From NCBI RefSeq assembly GCF_050320075.1, contig NZ_CP190018.1: a stretch of DNA of 64,000 bases, one strand, 5' to 3'. Below are positions 4,514 through 52,896 of the stretch, one piece after another; position 1 is the first letter of the stretch, and each line of letters starts with the position of its first letter. Source of the stretch: Escherichia coli (lineage in GTDB: Bacteria > Pseudomonadota > Gammaproteobacteria > Enterobacterales > Enterobacteriaceae). A program made the translations under genes and the position numbers. The notes beneath the pieces are model-generated. The model did no database searches, was not told the DNA's origin, and saw only the letters and a list, made by a program, of their open reading frames with translations.

Positions 4514-5023
4514 AGTGTATTCCTTATTGTTGCTTAGTTAGGGTAGTCACTATATTTGCGACTGAGCTGGTCGCTATTTTTAACCAGGCTGGAAAATTGA
4601 GTCAATATATCGAAAGCGGTAGTCGGCGGGTGTAAGTATGTAATGATGATGCTGCACTGGTGTTGAATATTATTCACGCCAAATTTTCCTTATTGAGCAA
4701 CGTCGTCGCAAGTGGCCTCAATGATTTTAGACCATTATCAGAGGTCCGGGGCGGCAGGGAGAGATTTAGTGCTGTGGAATATTGTGGTGCTGATGAATAT
4801 TTATATCCCGGATTGGTAGAGAAAAAGCTTTTTCCATGCACTTTTTTTGCAAATATTTCTGTATGGGAGGCGGTTTTGTTGCAGATTAATTCATAAAGAA
4901 ATGCATTTGGGTGTTGGCTGGAAGAGTCGCGGGTAGATGTTATTGTGCCAGCAGGGGCAGGGTAAGGTACTGTATCGATATGCTTTGGCAATTGCATGTG
5001 CCGCAGAGGGAGATGAAATGCCA

Positions 5024-5060
5024 ATAAAAAAGCCTGAGTTCGATGAGGGACGAACTCAGG
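5024..5060 (-). terminator. Rho-independent terminator of the yedS porin gene
   Basis: Perfect inverted repeat GCCTGAGTTCG / CGAACTCAGGC with an A6 tract on + strand (T6 on minus) directly downstream of the porin stop. Confidence 0.65.
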
Positions 5061-5104: not shown

Positions 5105-6298
5105 TTAGAACTGGTAGACTAAGCCCACAGCAACGATATCATCGGTAGCGATGCCGTTTGCTTTGTAGAAGTCGTCGTCGTTGTCCAGCAGGTTGATTTT
5201 GTAATCAACGTAGGTGGACATGTTTTTGTTGAAGTAGTAAGTCGCACCAATATCAACGTATTTAACCAGATCTTTATTGGTGTAACGTGGGTCGCCGTTG
5301 CCGTCATGAGCCCAACCACCTAAATCCTTACCTTTAGATTGCAGGTAAGCGATGGACGGGCGTAGGCCGAAGTCGAACTGATACTGAGCAACAACTTCAA
5401 AGTTTTGGGTTTTGTTCGCAATACCACCTCTGTCAATGTCGTTATTGTCTTTTCCGCTGCCATATGCAGTCATATTACGTGTTTCTGCATACATTGCCGC
5501 TAAATAGACATTATTCGCATCATATTTAGCACCGACTGTCCATGCTTCAGCTGTTTCACCACCAGCATATTTATTCGAGCGTTGCTCACCTAAACCAGTA
5601 GCACGTTGGTTATCAGTACGGTCAGAGTTTGAATATGCAGCCCCGAGGCTTAACCCGAAGTCAAAGTCATAGGAAGTGGACATACCGAAACCGTCACCAT
5701 TTTCTTTAGACAGTTTACGATTATTACCATTACCAGAACCTTCTTGATCCCAAAGCCCACCCGATCCTTCATTATTACCCTGATATTGCAGAGCAAAGTT
5801 CAGGCCATCGACCTGACCAAAGAAGCCATTGTTACGGTAGGTTGCAACACCATTAGCACGACCGTTCAGGAAGTTGTCGGCACCAGCATAGGTATCGCCA
5901 CCAAATTCTGGCAGCATATCGGTCCATGCTTCAATGTCATATACGACACCGTAGTTACGACCATAGTCGAAAGTACCATTCTGACCAAAGCCTAAACCTG
6001 CAAATGCCAGACGCGTTGCGGGATTACCTTTGTCGCTTTCAGGACCGTTTGCGCCAATGTTAAATTCCCACTGACCATAACCAGTGAATTGGTCAGCGAT
6101 CTGAGTTTCACCTTTGAAACCGATACGGGCATATGACATGTCGCCATCGCTGCCAGCATCATCAGAGAAGTAGTGCAGGCCCGCTACTTTTCCGTACAAA
6201 TCCAGTTTATTACCATCTTTATTATAGACTTCAGCCGCATTTGCTGCGCCAGCAACTAATAACGCCGGGACCAGCATTGCCAGAACTTTTCTTTTCAT
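5105..6298 (-). CDS. yedS: Outer-membrane general porin, OmpC/OmpF family (YedS), apparently intact
   Basis: Signal peptide [21 protein letters not shown], aromatic/Gly-rich beta-barrel repeats, C-terminal ...VGLVYQF; start taken at the MKRKVL Met (6298) inside the longer ORF 5105..6328. Confidence 0.85.
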
Positions 6299-6610
6299 TA
6301 TGTATTCCCTTGTGATTATAATCTTCATGAATATATCAATAAGTGCCGTTATCCAAAAAAAAGCACATTTGGATACTATTCTATGAAGTTCATTTTATTT
6401 TAAAGATTACATGTAACAAATATATTTAAAAGATTTCAAAATGTTTCTAATCTATTTAATATAATTCAGAATTATGAATTCTAAATATAAATATTCATGA
6501 AAATTATAAATGTATATCAATATGTTATGAGTTGAGCGGAAACATAGGGGGTATCAATGATTGTTGCGCCAAACGGCTGGTGTGATCACGCGCACATTAA
6601 TGAAGGCATA

Positions 6611-6701
6611 AAAAAAGCCGGCATCATGCCGGCCCAAAAAAAATAAACAAGACGATAAAAGGCTAATAACGGAAGCATCATGACACAGAATAATAAAAAG
6701 G
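6611..6701 (-). ncRNA. rseX: Candidate small RNA ending in an intrinsic terminator; position fits RseX, which I recall lying between yedR and yedS
   Basis: Hairpin GCCGGCATGATGCCGGC (6618..6634) flanked by T-runs on the minus strand, in the divergent yedR-yedS intergenic region. 3' end supported by sequence; 5' end placed by assumed ~90 nt length. Confidence 0.4.
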
Positions 6702-6926: not shown

Positions 6927-7229
6927 ATGGAATACGGTTCGACAAAGATGGAAGAGAGACTCTCTCGCAGCCCTGGCGGCAAATTGGCTTTGTGGGCTTT
7001 CTATACATGGTGTGGCTATTTCGTCTGGGCAATGGCGCGTTACATCTGGGTGATGAGCCGGATCCCTGATGCCCCGGTGTCGGGATTTGAAAGCGATTTA
7101 GGCTCTACCGCGGGAAAGTGGTTAGGGGCACTGGTCGGATTTTTATTTATGGCTCTGGTCGGGGCATTGTTAGGCAGCATTGCCTGGTATACCCGACCTC
7201 GTCCCGCACGTAGCAGACGCTATGAATAA
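6927..7229 (+). CDS. yedR: Small inner-membrane protein YedR
   Basis: ORF 6846..7229 with two predicted TM helices; start uncertain (TTG 6846, GTG 6864, ATG 6927 or ATG 6948). ATG 6927 chosen because the CRP-like site lies upstream of it. Confidence 0.6.
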   Translation: MEYGSTKMEERLSRSPGGKLALWAFYTWCGYFVWAMARYIWVMSRIPDAPVSGFESDLGSTAGKWLGALVGFLFMALVGALLGSIAWYTRPRPARSRRYE

Positions 7230-7268
7230 AAACTGCTAAGGTTGCGACTCTTTGGCAACGGAGCGCGT

Positions 7269-7964
7269 ATGGACTTACAACACTGGCAGACACAGTTCGA
7301 AAACTGGTTGAAAAACCATCATCAGCACCAGGACGCGGCCCATGACGTATGTCATTTTCGCCGCGTCTGGGCTACGGCACAGAAGCTGGCGGCAGATGAC
7401 GATGTCGATATGCTGGTGATTTTAACCGCCTGTTATTTTCACGATATTGTGAGCCTGGCGAAAAATCATCCGCAACGGCAGCGTTCTTCAATCCTGGCGG
7501 CAGAAGAGACGCGTCGCCTGCTCCGTGAAGAGTTCGTGCAATTTCCGGCGGAGAAAATCGAGGCCGTTTGTCATGCCATTGCCGCTCACAGTTTCAGCGC
7601 GCAAATCGCCCCCTTAACAACGGAAGCTAAAATCGTCCAGGATGCGGATCGGCTGGAAGCCCTGGGTGCGATTGGCCTGGCGCGCGTGTTTGCTGTTTCA
7701 GGGGCATTGGGCGTGGCGCTGTTTGATGGTGAAGATCCGTTCGCACAGCATCGCCCGCTTGATGATAAACGCTACGCGCTGGATCATTTCCAGACTAAGT
7801 TGCTGAAGCTACCGCAAACCATGCAAACCGCAAGAGGCAAGCAGCTGGCGCAGCACAACGCGCAATTTTTAGTCGAGTTTATGGCGAAGCTCAGTGCCGA
7901 ACTGGCGGGGGAGAATGAAGGTGTCGATCACAAGGTGATAGATGCGTTTTCACCCGCGGGCTGA
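7269..7964 (+). CDS. yedJ: HD-domain phosphohydrolase YedJ
   Basis: 231-aa product starting [13 protein letters not shown]...; HD motif (YFHDIV) and downstream [12 protein letters not shown]. Confidence 0.9.
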
Positions 7965-8030
7965 GCGCGTGGCCCTAAATGGCTGTAATTATGTTAACCT
8001 GTCGGCCATCTCAGATGGCCGGTTAAATCT

Positions 8031-9449
8031 ATGCAGGAAAATATATCAGTAACCGATTCATACAGCACCGGGAATGCCGCACAGGCAATGCTGGAGAAAC
8101 TGCTGCAAATTTATGATGCTAAAACGCTGGTGGCGCAGCTTAATGGTGTGGGTGAGAATCACTGGAGCGCGGCAATTTTAAAACGTGCGCTGGCGAATGA
8201 CTCGGCATGGCACCGTTTAAGTGAGAAAGAGTTCGCCCATCTGCAAACGTTGCTACCCAAACCACCGGCACATCATCCGCATTATGCGTTTCGCTTTATC
8301 GATCTGTTTGCCGGAATTGGCGGCATCCGTCGCGGTTTTGAATCGATTGGCGGACAGTGCGTGTTTACCAGCGAATGGAACAAACATGCGGTACGCACTT
8401 ATAAAGCCAATCATTATTGCGACCCGGCGACGCATCATTTTAATGAAGATATCCGCGACATCACCCTCAGCCATAAAGAAGGCGTGAGTGATGAGGCGGC
8501 GGCGGAACATATTCGTCAACACATTCCTGAACACGATGTATTACTGGCGGGTTTTCCTTGTCAGCCATTTTCGCTGGCTGGCGTATCGAAAAAGAACTCG
8601 CTCGGGCGGGCGCACGGTTTTGCCTGTGATACCCAGGGCACGCTGTTCTTTGATGTGGTGCGTATTATCGACGCGCGTCGACCGGCGATTTTTGTGCTCG
8701 AAAACGTCAAAAACCTGAAAAGCCACGACCAGGGTAAAACGTTCCGCATCATCATGCAGACGCTGGACGAACTGGGCTATGACGTGGCCGACGCAGACGA
8801 TAACGGGCCGGACGATCCGAAAATCATCGATGGCAAACATTTTCTGCCGCAGCACCGTGAACGCATCGTGCTGGTGGGTTTTCGTCGCGATCTGAATCTG
8901 AAAGCCGATTTTACTCTGCGTGATATCAGCAAATATTTCCCTGCACAGCGAGTGACGCTGGCGCAGCTGCTGGACCCGATGGTCGAGGCGAAATATATCC
9001 TGACGCCGGTACTGTGGAAGTACCTCTATCGATATGCGAAAAAACATCAGGCGCGCGGTAACGGCTTCGGTTATGGAATGGTTTATCCGAACAATCCGCA
9101 AAGCGTCACGCGTACGCTGTCTGCGCGTTATTACAAAGATGGCGCGGAAATTTTAATCGATCGCGGTTGGGATATGGCCACGGGTGAGAAAGACTTTGAC
9201 GATCCGCTGAATCAGCAACATCGCCCACGTCGGTTAACGCCTCGTGAATGCGCGCGTTTAATGGGGTTTGAAGCGCCGGGAGAAGCGAAATTCCGCATTC
9301 CGGTTTCGGACACTCAGGCCTATCGCCAGTTCGGTAACTCGGTGGTCGTACCGGTCTTTGCCGCGGTGGCAAAACTGCTTGAGCCAAAAATCAAACAGGC
9401 GGTGGCGTTGCGTCAGCAAGAGGCACAACATGGCCGACGTTCACGATAA
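8031..9449 (+). CDS. dcm: DNA-cytosine C5-methyltransferase Dcm
   Basis: 472 aa; motif I FAGIGG, catalytic PCQ motif ([11 protein letters not shown]), ENV motif (FVLENVKNL). Confidence 0.95.
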
Positions 9450-9900
9450 GGCCACTCGCAGCAAAAATATGCGCGCGATTGCTACGCGTGATACGGCGAT
9501 TGAGAAGCGCCTCGCCAGTCTGTTAACCGGGCAGGGCCTGGCATTTCGCGTTCAGGACGCGGATCTCCCCGGACGCCCGGATTTTGTCGTTGATGAATAT
9601 CGCTGCGTGATATTTACCCACGGCTGCTTCTGGCATCATCATCACTGCTATCTGTTTAAAGTGCCTGAGACACGAACCGAGTTCTGGCTGGAGAAGATAG
9701 GTAAAAATGTTGAGCGCGATCGCCGCGATATCAGTCGCTTGCAGGAACTCGGCTGGCGCGTATTGATTGTCTGGGAGTGCGCGTTACGTGGGCGCGAGAA
9801 GCTGAAGGATGAAGCGCTTACCGAGCGTCTGGAAGAGTGGATCTGCGGCGAAGGTGCCAGCGCGCAGATCGACACGCAGGGGATTCATTTACTCGCTTGA
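9430..9900 (+). CDS. vsr: Very-short-patch repair endonuclease Vsr
   Basis: 156-aa frame starting [22 protein letters not shown]..., overlapping the 3' end of dcm by 20 nt in another frame (the ORF-track upstream extension is ignored). Confidence 0.93.
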
Positions 9901-10809
9901 TGCGTCCTGAATAACTGGCGCAACTACGGGTTTTGCCGGGAAGAGATATTTTCCCAACGTGACCAGTACCACCGCGAAGACAATTACGCCGAGCGCCAGC
10001 CATTCAATCTTCGACAGCGTCTCTCCGCCCAGTCCCGTACCCAGCAAGACCGCGACCACCGGGTTAACGTAGGCGTAGCTGGTGGCGAGAGCCGGACTGA
10101 CGTTGCGGATTAAATACATATAAGCGTTAATGGCGATAATCGAACCAAACAGCGCCAGATAGCCGACCGCAAGGAAGCCTGAAAGGGAAGGGAGCGCCGT
10201 CAGTTTTTCACCTGCAATCATCGACGCGATCATTAACACCACGCCTGCTGCCAGCATCTCAATCGCACCCGCCATCATCCCTACAGGTAATGTAATGCGC
10301 GAGCCATAAACCGAGCCAAACGCCCAGCTAATCGAGCCGATTAAAATCAGAATCGCGCCCCACGGATTGCCGCTTAAATTTCCACCGCTATTGAGCATGA
10401 TGATTCCGGCAAGCCCAATGGCGATACCCACCCATTCCAGTTTGCGCGTTTTAATGCCAAATAGGCGGCTGAAGCACAAGGTAAAGAGAGGCACGGTTGC
10501 AACCACTACGGCGGCGATGCCGGAAGGAACATTTTGATGTTCGGCAACCGTTACCATGCCATTACCGACAGCCAGCAATAACAGGCCAATCAGCGCGGCA
10601 TTGAGCAGCGGACGTAGCGGGGGGAGTTTGTGTCCGCGCAGTAGCAAAAATGCCAGCAATAAAATACCGGCTGCCAGGAATCGCACGCCCGCCATCATTA
10701 ACGGCGGCCAGCTTTCCACGCCAATCCGAATGACAAAATAGGTTGAGCCCCAAATGATATACAACGCAAACAACGCGCCAAAAAGCGGTAACAACTGGCG
10801 GAAACGCAT
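9889..10809 (-). CDS. yedA: EamA/DMT-family inner-membrane transporter YedA
   Basis: 306-aa polytopic membrane ORF with duplicated EamA-like halves; 3' end overlaps the vsr 3' end by 12 nt (convergent). Confidence 0.9.
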   Translation of the reverse strand: MRFRQLLPLFGALFALYIIWGSTYFVIRIGVESWPPLMMAGVRFLAAGILLLAFLLLRGHKLPPLRPLLNAALIGLLLLAVGNGMVTVAEHQNVPSGIAAVVVATVPLFTLCFSRLFGIKTRKLEWVGIAIGLAGIIMLNSGGNLSGNPWGAILILIGSISWAFGSVYGSRITLPVGMMAGAIEMLAAGVVLMIASMIAGEKLTALPSLSGFLAVGYLALFGSIIAINAYMYLIRNVSPALATSYAYVNPVVAVLLGTGLGGETLSKIEWLALGVIVFAVVLVTLGKYLFPAKPVVAPVIQDASSE

Positions 10810-10981
10810 AATCCCTCACGGTGGAAATAAAAAGGTGGTTCATAGTAAACGTGAAAATCATTCTGCTGGCGAGAGATATAATTGCACTTGATTGTTAAAA
10901 AAATGTTGACCTGTGAAGCAAGTATCAGAGCTGCCGTTTTTGCTTCATACTTACACCCTTCAACAATAAAAATGAGAGGGA

Positions 10982-36725: not shown

Positions 36726-38396
36726 ATGGCACAAGTCATTAATACCAACAGCCTCTCGCTGATCACTCAAAATAATATCAACAAGAACCAGTCTGCGCTG
36801 TCGAGTTCTATCGAGCGTCTGTCTTCTGGCTTGCGTATTAACAGCGCGAAGGATGACGCCGCAGGTCAGGCGATTGCTAACCGTTTTACTTCTAACATTA
36901 AAGGCCTGACTCAGGCTGCACGTAACGCCAACGACGGTATTTCTGTTGCACAGACCACTGAAGGCGCGCTGTCCGAAATCAACAACAACTTACAGCGTAT
37001 TCGTGAACTGACGGTTCAGGCGACGACCGGAACTAACTCCACCTCTGACCTGGACTCCATTCAGGACGAAATCAAATCCCGTCTTGATGAAATTGACCGC
37101 GTATCCGGCCAGACCCAGTTCAACGGCGTGAACGTACTGTCAAAAGATGGCTCGATGAAAATTCAGGTCGGCGCGAACGATGGTGAAACCATCACGATTG
37201 ATCTGAAAAAGATCGACTCTTCTACATTGAAGCTGACCGGTTTTAACGTGAATGGCGAAGGTGAAACAGCCAATACTGCTGCAACACTTAAAGATATGGT
37301 TGGTTTAAAACTCGATAATACGGGGGTCACTACAGCTGGAGTTAATAGATATATTGCTGACAAAGCCGTCGCAAGTAGCACGGATATTTTGAATGCGGTA
37401 GCTGGTGTTGATGGCAGTAAAGTTTCCACGGAGGCAGATGTTGGTTTTGGTGCGGCTGCCCCTGGTACGCCAGTGGAATATACTTATCATAAAGATACTA
37501 ACACATATACGGCTTCTGCTTCAGTTGATGCGACTCAACTGGCGGCATTCCTGAATCCTGAAGCGGGTGGTACCACTGCTGCAACAGTAAGTATTGGCAA
37601 CGGTACAACAGCTCAAGAGCAAAAAGTCATTATTGCTAAAGATGGTTCTTTAACTGCTGCTGATGACGGTGCCGCTCTCTATCTTGATACTAATGGTAAC
37701 TTAAGTAAAACTAACGCAGGCACTGATACTCAAGCTAAACTGTCTGACTTAATGGCAAACAATGCTAAGGCAAAAACAGTCATTACAACAGATAAAGGTA
37801 CATTTACTGCTAATACGACAAACGATGGTTTTGATGGGGTAGATATTTCTGTTGATGCTTCAACGTTTGCTAATGCCGTTAAAAATGAGACTTACACTGC
37901 AACTGTTGGTGTAACTTTACCAGCGACATATACAGTCAATAATGGCACTGCTGCATCAGCGTATTTAGTCGATGGAAAAGTGAGCCAAACTCCTGCCGAG
38001 TATTTTGCTCAAGCTGATGGCACTATTACTAGTGGTGAAAATGCGGCTACCAGTAAAGCTATCTATGTAAGTGCCAATGGTAACTTAACGACTAACACAA
38101 CGAGTGAATCTGAAGCGACTACCAACCCGCTGGCAGCATTGGATGACGCTATCGCGTCCATCGACAAATTCCGTTCATCCCTTGGTGCTATCCAGAACCG
38201 TCTGGATTCCGCGGTCACCAACCTGAACAACACCACTACCAACCTGTCCGAAGCGCAGTCCCGTATTCAGGACGCCGACTATGCGACCGAAGTGTCCAAC
38301 ATGTCGAAAGCGCAGATTATTCAGCAGGCCGGTAACTCCGTGCTGGCAAAAGCTAACCAGGTACCGCAGCAGGTTCTGTCTCTGCTGCAGGGTTAA
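36726..38396 (+). CDS. fliC: Flagellin FliC (556 aa; non-K-12 central domain)
   Basis: Conserved N-terminus [54 protein letters not shown] and C-terminus ...[13 protein letters not shown]; Thr/Ala/Gly-rich central region. Confidence 0.95.
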
Positions 38397-44461: not shown

Positions 44462-44686
44462 TTACTGACGGTAGGCTTGTTTAATTTGCTTAACCGTTTT
44501 GGAAAATACTGCAGCCTGGGTTTCGTCTTCGATCAGCGCAAGCTGTTTTTCCATCTTTAACATCACGCGGCCCGCGTCAGCTTGTCCCATCGCCTGCAGC
44601 ATCAGCGTCAGCATCGCTTTCAGGCAGGAGACTTCATTTGCCAGTTCTTGATTATTCTCGGCAGTAGAAAAATCAGGCGTACTCAT
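44462..44686 (-). CDS. yecF: Small protein YecF (DUF2594)
   Basis: 74-aa ORF; conserved position between sdiA and uvrY. Confidence 0.85.
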
Positions 44687-48602: not shown

Positions 48603-48689
48603 GCCCGGATGGTGGAATCGGTAGACACAAGGGATTTAAAATCCCTCGGCGTTCGCGCTGTGCGGGTTCAAGTCCCGCTCCGGGTACCA
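48603..48689 (+). tRNA. leuZ: tRNA-Leu (anticodon UAA), with long variable arm
   Basis: 87-nt GCCCGGATGGTGGAATCGGTAGACACAAGGGATTTAAAATCCC...GGTACCA. Confidence 0.95.
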
Positions 48690-48763
48690 TGGGAAAGATA
48701 AGAATAAAATCAAAGCAATAAGCAGTGTCGTGAAACCACCTTCGGGTGGTTTTTTTGTGCCTG
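48634..48763. repeat. Left direct repeat (attL-like): 3' part of leuZ plus its downstream terminator
   Basis: 130 bp identical, apart from one indel, to 52766..52896; covers the anticodon-loop-to-3'-end of tRNA-Leu and the hairpin AAACCACCTTCGGGTGGTTTTTTTGT. Confidence 0.85.
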
Positions 48764-48941
48764 AAATTCACGCCCTGTGCATATCCTGTGCTCACGGGGG
48801 GCAATGAGCTGCAATCTCAAGCCCGGCAATGCCGAATCGAACGTGTCGCCTCCAGCATAGAGAACCAGGCCGCTTTGCCTGTTTTCCGGTACTCTTCCGG
48901 GAAGGGGGGCCAGCTGAGCAAGCTATAATGCTCTGGCCACC

Positions 48942-49673
48942 CTAAGCACAAAGTTGCTTAATTCGTGCAATCACCTCATCTCTGTATTTCTGGTGTCCGC
49001 GCATAGCCCTTGGATGGGCTATCCTGAAACAGATTGTATGACCTGTTTTGAACTCCCATAGCTTCCCCGGAATGACTGAAGAAGTCTCATAGCCGCCTAG
49101 CTCAGTAAGCACCTGTTTTATGATGTAGTCTGTTCTCCGGGCTCCGGATGCAAAGATGGTGAAATCAGGCTCAAGGTGTTTAATTTGTACCGCCAGCAGT
49201 TTCAGCGAGGCTAATATGACTTCCTGCACTTCATTTTGAGGGCGATTGAGAGGGGGCAGTCCGTCGTAATCCCACGCCAGTAGATTGGCATACACGATAG
49301 CCTGAGGAGGAATATTAAGCTCCCGGGCCAGCCGGAAGTGATACTGCGTGAAGCGGCTACGTGATTTGTGGTTCGTGGTGCCATCATTTTGTGCCGGAAG
49401 ATGTTTCCTGTAACGATCTACAGCCTCTTCAACCACCTGCCCGATGGTGACGTCAGGTATAAGTCCCAGAACCCGTGATATCGTATTCTTACCATTCAGC
49501 GTATTCCAGCCAGCGGTTTCACGCCCAACCAGCATGATTTTTACCGGTGAGTGCCAGTATTCTTCAAAGGGCACGGGTAAAAAGACGCCTGAGTATTTAT
49601 CCTCATTCAGGTTAAATGACTGGGCGTCAACTTCCTGTAATATCCGTTTGTATGCGTCTAATAGTCTTTCCAT
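48942..49673 (-). CDS. Hypothetical protein, possible UDG-superfamily (DNA glycosylase-like) fold
   Basis: 243-aa ORF inside the islet; beta-strand plus Gly motif (VKIMLVGRETAGW) near the N-terminus and C-terminal HP motif (FRIAHPRAMRG), similar in position to UDG motifs 1 and 2. Weak, motif-level only. Confidence 0.35.
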   Translation of the reverse strand: MERLLDAYKRILQEVDAQSFNLNEDKYSGVFLPVPFEEYWHSPVKIMLVGRETAGWNTLNGKNTISRVLGLIPDVTIGQVVEEAVDRYRKHLPAQNDGTTNHKSRSRFTQYHFRLARELNIPPQAIVYANLLAWDYDGLPPLNRPQNEVQEVILASLKLLAVQIKHLEPDFTIFASGARRTDYIIKQVLTELGGYETSSVIPGKLWEFKTGHTICFRIAHPRAMRGHQKYRDEVIARIKQLCA

Positions 49674-49723
49674 TCTTCAATCCTGCCCCGTAATAAAAAT
49701 ACCTTCAGATATATATTATTTTC

Positions 49724-50440
49724 ATGATATCAATCAGATACATGAGGATAAATATGCAAAAATCCTTCCGATTCACCAATTCATCCATCAAAGCCCTTCC
49801 GGCAAACACAGATACCCGATCTACAGAGCTTGAGGTATCTGATACCGAAGTCATTGGCCTCAAATGCCTCTCAGGTCGAACGGGCAACAAACGTTTCCTC
49901 CTGCGCTACACATTCCACGGTACCAAAAAAAGTATCAGTATTGGCAGATTCCCTGAAATCGATGTGGGAACAGCCCGTCAGATAGCTCGTCGTCACAAGG
50001 AGGCGATTGCACTGGGAAATGACCCTAAGGCAGAGCGCGATAATTATCGGGCGATGCCAACGCTTAGTGAGTTTTTTCACCAGACCTATGTTCCGTTCAT
50101 CAAGCGCCATAAAAAGTCCTGGGATAAGGATGTTCAGCGTTTCACGCAATACATTGAACCTCGTCTGGGGAAGATACGTTACTGCGACCTTCAGGCCCGG
50201 GAAATCCAGCAGGTGCTTTTTGACATGCTTGAGGGCCGTATTCACGGCCAGCAGTATGCACCGTCTACCTGTAACAGGGCACTGGCTATTCTGAAAACCA
50301 TGGGCCGTTATGCGCTACGACAGGATGTCCTGGAGAAGAATGAAGCCGATAAGATCCCTTTGCTGAAGGAGAATAATCACCGGACGCGCTTTTTTGACGC
50401 TGATGAGATCAGGAGAATCCTTGATGCTGCGTCTCGATAA
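49724..50440 (+). pseudogene. Truncated tyrosine recombinase (P4-type integrase N-terminal arm-binding plus SAM-like region; catalytic domain absent)
   Basis: 238-aa ORF with integrase N-terminal signature (FTNSSIKALP..., GLKCLSGRTGNKRFLLRYTFHGTKKSISIGRFPEIDVGTARQIARRHKEA) but ending before the catalytic R..HxxR..Y domain; adjacent to a tRNA att site. Confidence 0.7.
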
Positions 50441-50454
50441 CCCAATAAAGCTGC

Positions 50455-50490
<36 letters not shown>

Positions 50491-50491
50491 C

Positions 50492-50535
<44 letters not shown>

Positions 50536-50655
50536 TTCTAAGGCTTGCTTTAATGCTAAGGCTAAATGATTTTGATATAGTAAGTTCATACTTAGCGGGC
50601 AGATGCCCACAGACATAGTACCGAAAATAAATCAGGTATTCTGCGAGATTTCAGT

Positions 50656-51984
50656 ATGAAAATAGCCAATATTAGACTTACGAATTTTAGATGTTTTGAC
50701 GAGTTTAGTGTTGATTTTGACCCAAGACTTACAGTTCTCATTGCTCGTAATGGTAGAGGGAAATCTACTCTGCTTGACGCGGTAGCATTAGCTTTAGGAC
50801 CATTTTTAACTCGTTTGCCAGGGATCAAAGGGCTAAGTTTCAAGAAAACCGATTTCCGGATCGACGAAAATGGAGACCAGCCGTCCTATATGCGAGTAAG
50901 TTGTACTAGTACAACGGGTATAACTTGGGATAGAACTGAGCGAAGAGATCTGACAAAAAAAACGTTAGGTAGCATCCCCCAAGGGGCAGCCCTTAAAGCC
51001 TTGAATGATTACGTCGATACGTTCATTGATTCTCACAATGAGAATAAACACTATACATTGCCAATTTTTGTTTATTACGGAACTGGGCGTGGAGTGTTTG
51101 ATATACCACTCAGAAAACGTGCATTTAACAAGCATTTTTCTCGATTTGAGGCCCTTGACGGTGCTCTTGAAAGCAAAACAAATTTCAAAAGATTTGTGCA
51201 ATATTTTTATTTTCTTGAAGAAAAAGAAAATAGATTACAGAAAGAGCAACGATCATTTGAAGTAGAAATCCCTGAATTAAGGGCAATACGCTTGGCTGTG
51301 GAAAAATTACTGCCAGAGTTTAGCAATATTCGCTCGGCAGTACCTGCTGGAATTATGGTCGATTGGTGTAAGCCTATTGGAAATGGTGAAACAACCATAC
51401 AAAAGCTAAGGATTGAACAACTTAGTGATGGCTATAGAACAACTTTAGCTATGGTTATGGATATTGCAGCAAGAATGGCAGAAGCTAACCCCTATTCGAG
51501 TGATCCTCTAAGTTCTGAGGGGATAATTCTCATTGATGAGGTAGATCTGCATCTGCATCCGGAATGGCAACGTGAGTTTCTCCCTAGATTAATCAACGTT
51601 TTCCCTCATCTTCAGTTCATAGTATCGACGCATTCACCATTTATCATCCAGTCTGTCAAAGAGGGGATGTTGGTCGATCTTGATAAAGATGACATTTCGG
51701 ATAGCCCCTCTTTGAATAAAGAACTCAGCATCGAAGATATTGCTGAGGGTGTAATGGGAATGGAAAAAGTTCAACGAAGTGAATTGTTTAACAAACAAGT
51801 CGCAGTTTCAGATAGATATTATCAGTTACTGAATGAAGGAAGAAGTGAAAGCGACCCAGAGGTAAGGAAGCTCTCCGCTGAGCTTGATAAATTGGAAGAG
51901 TTTTTTGGAGATAACCCAGCTTATGTAGCCTTACTTCGTGCTGAGCGCCGAAAAATAATGGGGACACAAGGAAGTAAACAATGA
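50656..51984 (+). CDS. ABC/AAA-type ATPase (AAA_15/AAA_21-like), candidate Septu PtuA
   Basis: 442 aa; Walker A LIARNGRGKSTLLDAV, Walker B/D-loop IILIDEVDLHLHP, H-loop-like FIVSTHSPFI; AT-rich; stop overlaps start of downstream HNH gene (ATGA). Confidence 0.7.
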   Translation: MKIANIRLTNFRCFDEFSVDFDPRLTVLIARNGRGKSTLLDAVALALGPFLTRLPGIKGLSFKKTDFRIDENGDQPSYMRVSCTSTTGITWDRTERRDLTKKTLGSIPQGAALKALNDYVDTFIDSHNENKHYTLPIFVYYGTGRGVFDIPLRKRAFNKHFSRFEALDGALESKTNFKRFVQYFYFLEEKENRLQKEQRSFEVEIPELRAIRLAVEKLLPEFSNIRSAVPAGIMVDWCKPIGNGETTIQKLRIEQLSDGYRTTLAMVMDIAARMAEANPYSSDPLSSEGIILIDEVDLHLHPEWQREFLPRLINVFPHLQFIVSTHSPFIIQSVKEGMLVDLDKDDISDSPSLNKELSIEDIAEGVMGMEKVQRSELFNKQVAVSDRYYQLLNEGRSESDPEVRKLSAELDKLEEFFGDNPAYVALLRAERRKIMGTQGSKQ

Positions 51985-52592
51985 GACCTGTAAATCGACC
52001 TCCATATAATGGAACTGTTTATGCAGATTATAAATCATTTTTACCTTCGCTATTAACTGCATATGGCGGATATTGTTCTTATTGTGAGCGGCCGGATAAG
52101 GTTGATGTGGAGCATGTTGTCCCAAAAACGCATGCACCACTTTTGATTACTGATTGGAACAATTTTTTACTGGGTTGCCCTCGCTGTAACCGAGATTTTA
52201 AAAAAAGTAAGAATACTCAACGTATAGGCTATGTTTGGCCAGATGTTGAGAATACATTTAATTTATTGACATACCATCCAGATGGTAGAGTAGAGCCTAA
52301 GCAGGGGCTGTCTGCCGGACTAACTGCGCAGGTACAGGCTACTATTGATTTGGTATGTCTTGATGATGGTAACCAAGTACAAAAAACTTTAAATCTTGGT
52401 AGAAGGAGATATTTTGGACTCGCGAATAAGGCCAAGACTCTTTATCTGAGTAATTTATTGAGTATTGATGAGGTCATGGATATGGCTCAGTTAGGATATT
52501 GGTCGATCTGGTATAATGTGTTTCAAGGTGTACCTGCTGTCCTTTCAGCTTTGGAGAATTCCTATCCTAATACCGCTATAAACCGCCCATGA
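51981..52592 (+). CDS. HNH endonuclease, candidate Septu PtuB
   Basis: 203 aa; HNH/zinc-finger motif CSYCERPDKVDVEHVVPK...NNFLLGCPRCNRDFK (C-x2-C ... H ... N ... C-x2-C); translationally coupled to the upstream ATPase. Confidence 0.7.
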   Translation: MRPVNRPPYNGTVYADYKSFLPSLLTAYGGYCSYCERPDKVDVEHVVPKTHAPLLITDWNNFLLGCPRCNRDFKKSKNTQRIGYVWPDVENTFNLLTYHPDGRVEPKQGLSAGLTAQVQATIDLVCLDDGNQVQKTLNLGRRRYFGLANKAKTLYLSNLLSIDEVMDMAQLGYWSIWYNVFQGVPAVLSALENSYPNTAINRP

Positions 52593-52765
52593 CATAGGTG
52601 AAATGAATTGGCTCAGGTGCGTACAAGGGGAAGACTTACCTGTGCAGCTTCTGTGTTCAACGTTATCCATGTCTATCTATTTACTGCCAATTACAGTAAA
52701 GTTGGTGGATAATTACAGCAAAGTGTTGCAATGGGTTGCTATGTAAATCATTGATCCTGCGTAGA

Positions 52766-52896
52766 ATTTAAAATCCCTCGGCGTTCGCGCTGTGCGGGTT
52801 CAAGTACCCGCTCCGGGTACCATGGGAAAGATAAGAATAAAATCAAAGCAATAAGCAGTGTCGTGAAACCACCTTCGGGTGGTTTTTTTGTGCCTG
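52766..52896. repeat. Right direct repeat (attR-like): partial copy of leuZ 3' part plus terminator
   Basis: 131-bp copy of 48634..48763 with a single-nucleotide insertion (CAAGTACCCGCT versus CAAGTCCCGCT); lacks the tRNA 5' half, so it is not a functional tRNA. Confidence 0.85.

Follow-up and report, generated by a model that had tools for sequence, protein, structure and literature searches.

Overlapping gene ends in the dcm-vsr-yedA locus of an Escherichia coli chromosome

The locus described here is, in our reading, the dcm-vsr module of the E. coli chromosome with yedA as its convergent neighbour; vsr would be translationally coupled to dcm, and the overlap with yedA would be incidental. 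We assign this reading a probability of roughly 0.88. The arrangement is already known, and its layout is ordinary and the same as in the reference strain. The main value of the analysis is one of quality control, showing that the window, i.e., the whole 64-kb stretch of DNA that was analysed, consists of unremarkable core chromosome of E. coli and that this strain carries an intact repair module. The comparative results refine a known system in small ways and are no discoveries. As textbook biology has it, the linkage of methylase and nuclease protects CCWGG sites from becoming C-to-T hotspots.

Organization and integrity of the locus

On the plus strand, dcm (8031-9449; 472 amino acids, ATG to TAA) encodes a C-5 cytosine DNA methyltransferase and is followed by vsr (9430-9900; 156 amino acids, ATG to TGA), which encodes the endonuclease of very-short-patch (VSP) repair acting on T:G mismatches. 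The gene yedA (9889-10809; 306 amino acids), coding for an exporter of the EamA/DMT family, is located on the minus strand and converges on vsr. Two further plus-strand genes, drpB (yedR; 6948-7229) and yedJ (7269-7964, with an HD domain), are annotated by RefSeq in the closest strain and in K-12 and represent the upstream members of the dcm-vsr transcription unit.

The initial annotation had placed the start of vsr 20 nt inside the 3' end of dcm in a different frame, which direct reading of the sequence bore out to the base. The vsr ATG is located at 9430-9432 and the dcm TAA at 9447-9449, and with (9430-8031) mod 3 = 1 vsr is read in the +1 frame. The resulting dual-coding segment of 20 nt (9430-9449, plus strand) specifies the last six Dcm codons and the stop (..GRRSR*) and, in the +1 frame, the Vsr residues M-A-D-V-H-D-K, the conserved Vsr codons Asp6-Lys7 (GAT-AAG) supplying the dcm stop. 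The sequence AAGAGG within dcm (9418-9423, plus strand), which precedes the vsr ATG by 6 nt, resembles a Shine-Dalgarno (SD) site and probably serves vsr as such. Purine-rich equivalents occur at the same position in Citrobacter, Enterobacter and Superficieibacter.

At the other end of the gene, the last 12 nt of vsr were likewise found to overlap the 3' end of yedA, as had been claimed. The segment 9889-9900, common to both strands, comprises the last three codons and the stop of each gene: the vsr TGA occupies 9898-9900, and the yedA TAA is the complement of 9889-9891. The term "nested", which had been applied to these overlaps, is a misnomer, as there are two terminal overlaps, one at either end of vsr.

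Comparison with MG1655 identified no internal stops and no frameshifts in dcm, vsr and yedA, also not within the overlapping frames relative to the reference proteins, and lengths and start and stop codons were those of K-12. The locus is, therefore, intact, as initially proposed. Gene order, strands, lengths, the 20-nt and 12-nt overlaps and the junctions all correspond to dcm (b1961), vsr (b1960) and yedA (b1959) of K-12 MG1655, and the stretches of 61 nt and 51 nt around the junctions are identical. The differences are allelic only, with nucleotide identities of 97.3-97.9% in the three genes and five, three and no substitutions in Dcm, Vsr and YedA, respectively. RefSeq uses the gene names dcm, vsr and yedA and gives identical overlaps in K-12, in the closest strain, WP4-S17-ESBL-08 (100% identical over 3.1 kb), and in two E. 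coli genomes with divergent junctions. An Rfam scan of the whole window identified no RNA family within 7,000-11,000, and elsewhere only rseX, DsrA and three tRNAs.

Dcm and Vsr retain their functional residues

The dcm product matched the Pfam families PF00145 (DNA_methylase; 261 bits vs. a cut-off of 22, E=2e-77) and PF18284 (DNA_meth_N; 72.6 bits vs. 25) as well as TIGR00675 (351 bits). The whole-protein profile NF007772 of NCBIfam matched residues 1-469 with 950 bits, above its curated cut-off of 710, which assigns the protein to the Dcm / PRK10458 subfamily of C-5 methyltransferases. All catalytic motifs were found, namely DLFAGIGG at 93, GFPCQPFS at 176 (with Cys177), LENVKNL at 224, QHRER at 274 and FGNSVV at 435, which we take to be motifs I (FxGxG, AdoMet binding), IV (PCQ, catalytic Cys), VI (ENV), VIII (QxRxR) and X (GNSV). 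With 467 of 472 residues identical to K-12 Dcm (substitutions V30A, M220I, E256D, E301K and C302Y), the enzyme is expected to methylate the second C of CCWGG, a site that occurs 145 times in the window. A bias between CCWGG and CTWGG pentamers was considered as a footprint of VSP repair and dropped as uninformative, since observed/expected ratios under a third-order Markov model of the 64 kb were about 0.72 for both. The tetramer CTAG is depleted in the window (34 observed vs. 99 expected), a depletion that is well known.

Vsr was recognized by PF03852 (134 bits vs. a cut-off of 27) and TIGR00632 (183 bits vs. 97.85), and matched the solved structure of E. coli Vsr (1CW0 chain A) in 152 of 155 residues with three substitutions (E=3e-104). 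Its only differences from K-12 Vsr are S45D, A80E and T126K, none of which affects a catalytic, zinc-binding or intercalating residue. All 13 functional residues that we presume for Vsr were found at the expected positions: D51, T63, H64 and H69 (catalytic), C66, H71, C73 and C117 (zinc ligands), and M14, I17, F67, W68 and W86 (DNA-intercalating); the list reportedly goes back to the structures of Tsutakawa et al. 1999. An upstream start at TTG 9268, where the open reading frame of vsr begins, was rejected, as both profiles (Pfam and TIGR) and the 1CW0 chain start with the residue that follows the ATG at 9430; E. albertii, in addition, has no other candidate start, and the head of Vsr is conserved from the Met at 9430. 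Nicking 5' of the T in C(T/G)WGG mismatches is established in the literature for the K-12 protein and is to be expected of the present allele.

Expression of vsr is probably coupled to dcm

As the literature describes the module, Dcm methylates the inner cytosine of CCWGG, and deamination of 5-methylcytosine gives rise to T:G mismatches. Vsr makes a nick on the 5' side of the mispaired T, and resynthesis of a short patch then restores the C. Published work describes dcm and vsr as co-transcribed in one operon (PMC12907096), and SMRT-Cappable-seq has placed yedR-yedJ-dcm-vsr on a single operon (PMC6131387). PMC4444293, which cites Dar & Bhagwat 1993, states that dcm partially overlaps vsr and that vsr activity is also lost in dcm-6, a nonsense mutation at codon 45 of dcm. 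The literature thus supports both the transcription of the two genes together, from a promoter that precedes dcm, and the dependence of vsr translation on that of dcm, and the classic coupling of methylase and mismatch endonuclease invoked in the initial annotation agrees with it.

The nuclease gene would, accordingly to this literature, possess no transcription unit of its own and be read from the drpB-yedJ-dcm-vsr mRNA. Since the last dcm codons contain the vsr ATG, in the +1 frame, and its GAGG-type SD site, initiation at vsr may be delivered or enabled by ribosomes that translate dcm or terminate on it, i.e., translational coupling. Such coupling would tie the nuclease to the methylase that makes its substrate and would hold it at a lower level. 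A low and tied level of Vsr would matter because Vsr in excess or without its partner is mutagenic or damaging: excess Vsr competes with MutH for MutL (PMC2715241), and a Vsr-like protein of Caulobacter provokes an SOS response and a loss of fitness in the absence of its methylase (PMC12907096). VSP repair differs by growth phase (PMC12907096, PMC2715241), and therefore regulation beyond simple coupling is likely to occur.

The 20-nt overlap is conserved among enterics and may be set by Vsr codons

Loci encoding Vsr were collected with a motif internal to vsr, yielding a sample of 119 loci that is unbiased with respect to the junctions. A same-strand C5-methylase reading frame ending at most 400 nt from the vsr start was present in 39 of them. 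In 26 of these 39 pairs the two genes overlapped and in seven more they were no more than 16 nt apart, which points to selection for tight juxtaposition. The overlaps fell into classes of 20 nt (six loci, enteric), 14 nt (one), 8 nt (13), 4 nt (two) and 1 nt (four), the classes outside the enterics carrying some uncertainty as vsr start codons are best guesses there. Besides E. coli, the 20-nt overlap was found in E. albertii, Citrobacter werkmanii, Enterobacter cloacae and two further Enterobacter genomes. The 8-nt class, which occurs in Dcm-like pairs of several phyla, reads NTG-(G/C)CT-GA and has the same register as the 20-nt class but is four codons shorter.

These patterns suggest that the length of the overlap is set by the conserved N-terminal codons of Vsr. 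In many Dcm-like pairs the methylase stop is a TGA arising from the Vsr codons Ala2-Asp3 (NTG-GCT-GA), resulting in 8 nt. In enterics, Ala2 is encoded by GCC, GCA or GCG (ACG, Thr, in one Enterobacter genome) instead of GCT, and because of this dcm would run on for four more codons to a TAA, resulting in 20 nt. Judged from the sequences, the 20-nt overlap may thus be the widespread 8-nt overlap extended by four codons. The additional Dcm residues are located outside the catalytic domain and are poorly conserved: the methylase domains of Pfam and TIGR reach to residues 448-450 of 472, and in the enteric comparison the tails of Dcm vary between genera while the head of Vsr is conserved.

If the position of the stop is dictated by Vsr codons, the overlap might be a neutral by-product of the first in-frame stop, with spacing or the SD site alone being sufficient and no coupling function involved. 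In line with this, the overlap-encoded residues of Dcm are not conserved, and Shimwellia Dcm, which ends in ..AVALR*, lacks them altogether. In addition, dcm and vsr do not overlap in Enterobacter sp. Ag1 (gap of 12 nt) and Shimwellia (gap of 13 nt), and the overlap is therefore not indispensable. Overlaps are also common in the window, 15 of 50 co-directional and two of 12 convergent neighbours overlapping, e.g., otsB/otsA by 26 nt, yecF/yecU by 14 nt and the convergent pair dgcQ/yedP by 4 nt. These counts are taken from the annotation of WP4-S17-ESBL-08 and are approximate for the window, since alignment fails in the porin and fliC segments; the notion that the window stems from that same strain was, for the same reason, wrong outside the dcm region. 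Overlap per se is statistically unremarkable here, and what exceeds chance is the 20-nt geometry conserved across genera. However, an explanation without coupling is difficult to reconcile with the loss of vsr activity upon a dcm nonsense mutation far upstream (PMC4444293) and with the frequent overlap or close spacing of methylase and vsr among the adjacent pairs. The by-product explanation disputes the need for the overlap rather than the coupling and is, to this extent, partly compatible with a coupled module; as a full alternative we regard it as unlikely.

A predicted hairpin over the vsr start

Folding of the E. coli mRNA predicted a hairpin at 9399-9459 (plus strand) around the SD site and AUG of vsr and the stop codon of dcm, with a minimum free energy (MFE) of -28.2 kcal/mol and z = -2.7, two of 200 shuffled sequences folding as well. 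Such a structure might sequester the SD site and AUG, gate translation of Vsr and account for the way VSP repair depends on growth phase. Its basal helix can be formed by 7-9 of nine aligned sequences. However, the hairpin was not recovered as MFE structure in E. albertii (z = -0.6), Citrobacter or Enterobacter, and covariation did not rise above controls (81.2% paired cells vs. 80.5% in shuffles, 147 of 500 shuffles reaching the observed score). The conserved arms coincide with conserved codons (QAV and KATR). The idea that the dcm/vsr junction holds a conserved RNA structure was thus rejected, and a gating function of the predicted hairpin appears very unlikely. We give slightly less credence still to an E. 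coli-specific version, in which the hairpin, its 3' arm extending across the dcm stop, would act as a post-transcriptional switch that is opened only by ribosomes finishing dcm and keeps Vsr low during growth and raised in stationary phase despite an mRNA common with dcm.

The overlap of vsr and yedA is probably incidental

The yedA product is 100% identical to K-12 YedA at the amino-acid level, contains two EamA domains (PF00892, two stretches, E=5e-43) and matched the equivalog NF008432, "drug/metabolite exporter YedA", with 513 bits vs. a cut-off of 270, the profile ending at residue 291 of 306. In 11 enteric genomes the overlap of vsr and yedA measured 12, 12, 9, 9, 11, 26, 29, 29, 48, 0 and 0 nt, and the length of Vsr ranged from 155 to 173 amino acids. 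The 12 nt found here would, hence, represent two variable C-terminal tails meeting without a spacer rather than a conserved functional element, and the overlap is probably incidental.

Convergent overlap could also act as a regulatory device, by read-through antisense RNA or transcriptional interference on the opposite gene. An intergenic spacer is absent in all 11 enteric genomes, and E. coli is known to possess long antisense-containing operons (PMC6131387). Furthermore, no terminator-like hairpin was found at or just past either stop, the only nearby candidate (9488-9472, minus strand) being located about 400 nt into antisense vsr. Against such a role, neither length nor sequence of the overlap is conserved among enterics, and within E. 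coli the 3' junction is the more variable one, with less than 95% identity in 411 genomes compared to none for the 5' junction. A second convergent overlap in the window, dgcQ/yedP, indicates a common layout. A consensus scan of 7000-12300, with counts compared to shuffles, gave terminator-like sites that are no commoner than by chance (8 vs. 6.5) and three promoter-like sites vs. 5.3, with none at either junction, and was considered uninformative as evidence. Taken together, a regulatory function of the vsr/yedA overlap is very unlikely.

Expression of vsr from an independent promoter within dcm, which would render the overlap irrelevant to expression, is highly improbable: orphan vsr genes in Enterobacter sp. 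Bisph1 and Tatumella are in its favor, and Bisph1, which has vsr with its own SD site and no dcm, shows that Vsr expression is possible in nature without dcm, but Bisph1 vsr follows yedJ by 12 nt and hence still resides within the operon, the scan identified no sigma-70-like promoter inside dcm and no such site near 9430 (weak evidence in itself), and the literature describes one operon (PMC6131387, PMC12907096) and polarity of dcm-6 on vsr (PMC4444293).

Related systems

Among the closest known systems outside the enterics are Dcm/EcoRII-like pairs with the 8-nt NTG-GCT-GA overlap, e.g., in Novosphingobium (L007), Spirulina (L012), Chlorobium (L121) and Bradyrhizobium (L067 and L090). As in E. 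coli, a methylase gene precedes vsr on the same strand, the vsr start is in the same register and the head of Vsr reads M/L-A-D-V/I. In contrast to E. coli, the overlap is 8 instead of 20 nt, the methylase ends on a TGA within Vsr codons 2-3 and not on a TAA within codons 6-7, and the genes around the pair are others, yedA being absent.

The EcoRII methylase - Vsr - EcoRII-C module of Burkholderia phage KL3 (PMC3091744) similarly has the methylase directly upstream of and overlapping vsr, and CCWGG specificity and the logic of VSP repair are alike. It differs in that methylase and vsr overlap by 1 nt (35142/35142) and that a restriction endonuclease gene follows vsr with a 4-nt overlap (PMC3091744), KL3 harboring a phage restriction-modification module and E. 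coli a solitary chromosomal methylase. In Caulobacter crescentus, a solitary cytosine methylase, ScmA, is functionally paired with a Vsr-like nuclease, VsrA, as in E. coli (PMC12907096). Unlike in E. coli, the two genes are unlinked, at near-opposite chromosomal positions, and for this reason there is neither overlap nor coupling (PMC12907096).

Distribution within E. coli

The 3.1-kb locus was present, at a query coverage of at least 80%, in 5,352 of 5,426 complete E. coli genomes (about 99%). The dcm/vsr junction (71 nt) was found in 5,319 genomes, with an identity of at least 99% in 3,274 of them. The allele group of the present strain is a minority, as 34 of 5,367 matching genomes were at least 99% identical over the 3.1 kb.

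Geometry and integrity of the dcm-vsr-yedA locus

The segment 7800-11200 was read directly and by ORF listing, and the overlap arithmetic was re-checked by script. The cytosine-5 methyltransferase gene dcm occupies 8031-9449 on the plus strand (472-aa ORF, stop TAA at 9447-9449). vsr, encoding the T:G mismatch endonuclease of very-short-patch (VSP) repair, lies on the same strand in the +1 frame, from its annotated ATG at 9430 to a TGA ending at 9900, and the putative exporter gene yedA is convergent (9889-10809, minus strand, 306-aa ORF; its TAA is the complement of 9889-9891). The 20 nt at 9430-9449 (plus strand) encode Dcm ..H-G-R-R-S-R-stop in one frame and Vsr M-A-D-V-H-D-K in the other. 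On opposite strands, vsr and yedA each have their final three codons and stop within the 12 nt at 9889-9900. The coordinates and both overlap lengths in the initial annotation were thus exactly right; its term "nested" does not hold, as no gene lies inside another and vsr is instead clipped at both ends.

A 3.1-kb query covering the locus found a match in 5,367 of 5,426 complete E. coli genomes, with at least 80% coverage in 5,352, and the order yedJ-dcm-vsr-yedA-yedI was annotated in every match listed; 59 of the 5,426 genomes lacked any match. The closest strain, WP4-S17-ESBL-08, is 100% identical to the query, and the RefSeq annotations of this strain and of K-12 MG1655 likewise contain the 20-nt and 12-nt overlaps. 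The five genes yedJ to yedI agree with those of K-12 in length, start codon and stop codon, no internal stops were found in them, and the stretches spanning the two junctions (61 and 51 nt) are identical. Amino-acid changes amount to five in Dcm, three in Vsr and none in YedA. The claim that the locus is intact therefore withstood the search for frameshifts and stops against the K-12 proteins. The annotated overlap geometry was also unchanged in two E. coli genomes picked for divergent junction sequences.

The three products have all family features that can be checked from sequence. Dcm matches the DNA_methylase and DNA_meth_N profiles and contains methylase motifs I, IV, VI, VIII and X; Vsr matches the Vsr family profile, differs from the crystal-structure chain 1CW0 by three substitutions and retains 13 of 13 catalytic, zinc-binding and intercalating residues; and YedA contains two EamA repeats. 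The NCBIfam models NF007772, TIGR00632 and NF008432 (the YedA equivalog) all scored well over their cut-offs. The locus is K-12 b1961-b1960-b1959 save for allelic substitutions, and its arrangement is already known.

The dcm/vsr overlap is conserved

As annotated in the closest strain, 15 of 50 co-directional gene pairs across this stretch overlap (1 nt in four pairs, 4 nt in six, 8 nt in two, and 14, 20 and 26 nt in one each), as do two of 12 convergent pairs, vsr/yedA by 12 nt and dgcQ/yedP, tail to tail, by 4 nt (14022-14025). The 26-nt otsB/otsA overlap (about 63024-63049) exceeds that of dcm/vsr, and yecF/yecU share 14 nt (about 44673-44686); past 38 kb, window coordinates are offset by about 15 nt from those of the closest strain. 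As overlaps are this common, the existence of one is unremarkable, and the meaningful part of the dcm/vsr overlap is its conservation.

One genome per species was scanned for the Vsr motif HGCFWHxHxC, which yielded at least 120 loci and, because the motif is internal to Vsr, left the junctions unbiased; Vsr, C5-methylase and YedA ORFs at these loci were identified with phmmer. Among the matches listed, 39 of 119 Vsr loci had a same-strand methylase ORF ending less than 400 nt from the vsr start. Many scanned loci are partial and non-enteric vsr start codons are best guesses, so that the number of loci without an adjacent methylase is an upper bound. In about twenty other loci among these matches the methylase lies downstream of vsr. 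Methylase and vsr overlap in 26 of the 39 listed pairs, and the other 13 have gaps of 4-287 nt. The overlap measures 20 nt in six loci (the window, E. albertii, Citrobacter werkmanii, Enterobacter cloacae and two more Enterobacter), 14 nt in one (Superficieibacter) and, among the matches listed, 8 nt in 13, 4 nt in two and 1 nt in four.

The 8-nt class (vsr starts of loci L004, L007, L012, L016, L023, L034, L044, L067, L090, L105, L118, L120 and L121) comprises Dcm-like methylases from several phyla (E about 1e-100 against Dcm) and represents a layout related to that of the window. Its sequence is NTG-(G/C)CT-GA, so that Vsr codons 2-3 supply the methylase TGA, and its register is that of the 20-nt overlap. 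In E. coli, Ala2 of Vsr is GCC; the TGA is therefore lost and dcm extends four more codons, so that 20 nt equals 8 nt plus four codons, and in the enteric 20-nt class Vsr codons Asp6-Lys7 (GAT-AAG) form the dcm TAA. From these sequences we infer that the enteric 20-nt state is derived. In two enterics with Vsr Ser6, Enterobacter sp. Ag1 and Shimwellia, the dcm stop lies 12-13 nt upstream of vsr.

The Dcm tails encoded by the overlap vary by genus (..HGRRSR, ..NGGRSQ, ..NDGCAR, ..SGGRSR, ..SGGRP), fall past the end of the methylase domain (residues 448-450) and are missing from the Dcm of Shimwellia. As the Vsr head is conserved between genera, the Vsr frame dominates constraint on the dual-coding segment. 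A variant within these 20 nt occurs in E. coli KH_005 (locus L125, 271-279), with ATGGTCGAC in place of ATGGCCGAC; this leaves the Dcm residue as it was (GGC to GGT) and replaces Ala by Val at Vsr residue 2. In E. coli CM13 (locus L127, 1718-2240), dcm is absent but for its last 72 nt, kept ahead of an intact vsr. This looks like an engineered deletion made to spare the overlapping vsr start; the host is given as 'not applicable'.

Two further related systems differ in layout. In the EcoRII-methylase/Vsr/EcoRII-C module of phage KL3 the overlaps measure 1 and 4 nt (PMC3091744), and the genes of the Caulobacter pair ScmA/VsrA are unlinked (PMC12907096).

Probable translational coupling of vsr to dcm

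Translational coupling is the best-supported model for vsr expression. Ribosomes completing dcm at 9449 would expose the vsr start, 17 nt upstream; alternatively, ribosomes ending there may re-initiate at this start. A putative Shine-Dalgarno (SD) site of the GAGG type, AAGAGG, lies within dcm at 9418-9423 (plus strand), 6 nt ahead of the vsr ATG, and a consensus scan found no promoter-like site within dcm. A Dcm-Vsr fusion protein was reportedly excluded by Dar and Bhagwat in 1993.

The initial annotation had called the overlap a classic methylase/mismatch-endonuclease coupling, and the literature supports this reading: dcm overlaps part of vsr (PMC4444293), and a passage of the same paper states that dcm-6, a nonsense mutation at codon 45, abolishes vsr activity too (PMC4444293, citing Dar & Bhagwat 1993). 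The two genes are co-transcribed (PMC12907096), in an operon including yedR/drpB and yedJ (PMC6131387). VSP repair corrects T:G mismatches arising by deamination of the 5-methylcytosine made by Dcm (PMC4444293) and is active mainly in stationary phase, and surplus Vsr is mutagenic, as Vsr and MutH compete for MutL (PMC2715241).

RNAfold predicted a hairpin at 9399-9459 (-28.2 kcal/mol, z = -2.7) spanning the SD site and AUG of vsr together with the dcm stop. Its arms consist of conserved codons. In E. albertii, Citrobacter and Enterobacter the corresponding 91-nt segment gave other folds, whose z-scores were unremarkable; in a nine-sequence alignment 81.2% of cells were paired, against 80.5% in shuffles, and the covariation score was matched or beaten by 147 of 500 shuffles. 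For want of comparative support the hairpin was rejected as a conserved element. It may exist in E. coli, and that it would gate the translation of Vsr according to growth phase is very improbable.

Natural orphan vsr genes also occur. Enterobacter sp. Bisph1 (locus L042, 2770-4888) has the order yedJ-vsr-yedA, and a tblastn search for dcm gave no hit; vsr starts 12 nt past the yedJ stop with its own GGGAG SD site. Tatumella morbirosei (locus L111, vsr at 4547-5044) lacks dcm, yedJ and yedA within about 7 kb. Such orphans are curious, since Vsr is reported to do harm when its methylase is absent: the Caulobacter Vsr-like nuclease without its methylase causes an SOS response and fitness loss (PMC12907096).

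The vsr/yedA junction

Among the matches listed, 11 of 12 enteric-type loci have a yedA convergent with vsr, and a spacer between the two is absent in all 11. E. coli and E. albertii both have an overlap of 12 nt, two Citrobacter one of 9 nt and Superficieibacter one of 11 nt. Four Enterobacter have overlaps of 26, 29, 29 and 48 nt, and in Shimwellia and Enterobacter sp. Ag1 the stops abut, giving 0 nt. Neither overlap length nor overlap sequence is conserved. Vsr ranges from 155 to 173 aa across the enteric-type loci compared, and the YedA equivalog profile stops at residue 291 of 306. Within E. coli, identity over 71 nt falls below 95% in 411 genomes at the 3' junction and in none at the 5' junction. 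We read this overlap as probably two drifting C-terminal tails that meet, with no functional element. No terminator-like hairpin was found at the vsr or yedA stop, and terminator-like counts in the region did not exceed those of shuffles. One terminator-like candidate, at 9472-9488 on the minus (yedA) strand, comprises a hairpin and a T-run (CGCGTAGCAATCGCGCG CATATTTTTG); it falls about 400 nt beyond the yedA stop, within antisense vsr. Conserved Vsr codons, Lys12-Asn13, account for its T-run, and such sites are regionally not above chance.

Other features of the window

Compared with WP4-S17-ESBL-08, otherwise 99% identical, only 5120-5792 and 37249-38118 remained unaligned. The former is part of a porin gene (intact in WP4-S17-ESBL-08; its K-12 counterpart, yedS, is a pseudogene) and the latter the middle of fliC, the flagellin gene; the two represent alleles of surface antigens. 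Rfam identified the small RNAs DsrA at 15038-15124 (plus strand, 102 bits) and rseX at 6610-6699 (minus strand, 95 bits), the latter just upstream of drpB. Directly after a tRNA-Gly/Cys/Leu cluster lies an islet of about 4 kb (48634-52896). A direct repeat of 131 bp, which starts within tRNA-Leu, bounds it on both sides (48634-48763 and 52766-52896; 99.2% identity). The islet carries a hypothetical gene (48942-49673, minus strand, 243 aa), a fragment of an integrase (49724-50440) and the two genes of a Septu type I defence pair, which overlap by 4 nt: PtuA (50656-51984; PADLOC PtuA1, E=2e-190) and PtuB, an HNH nuclease (51981-52592; PtuB1, E=6e-61).
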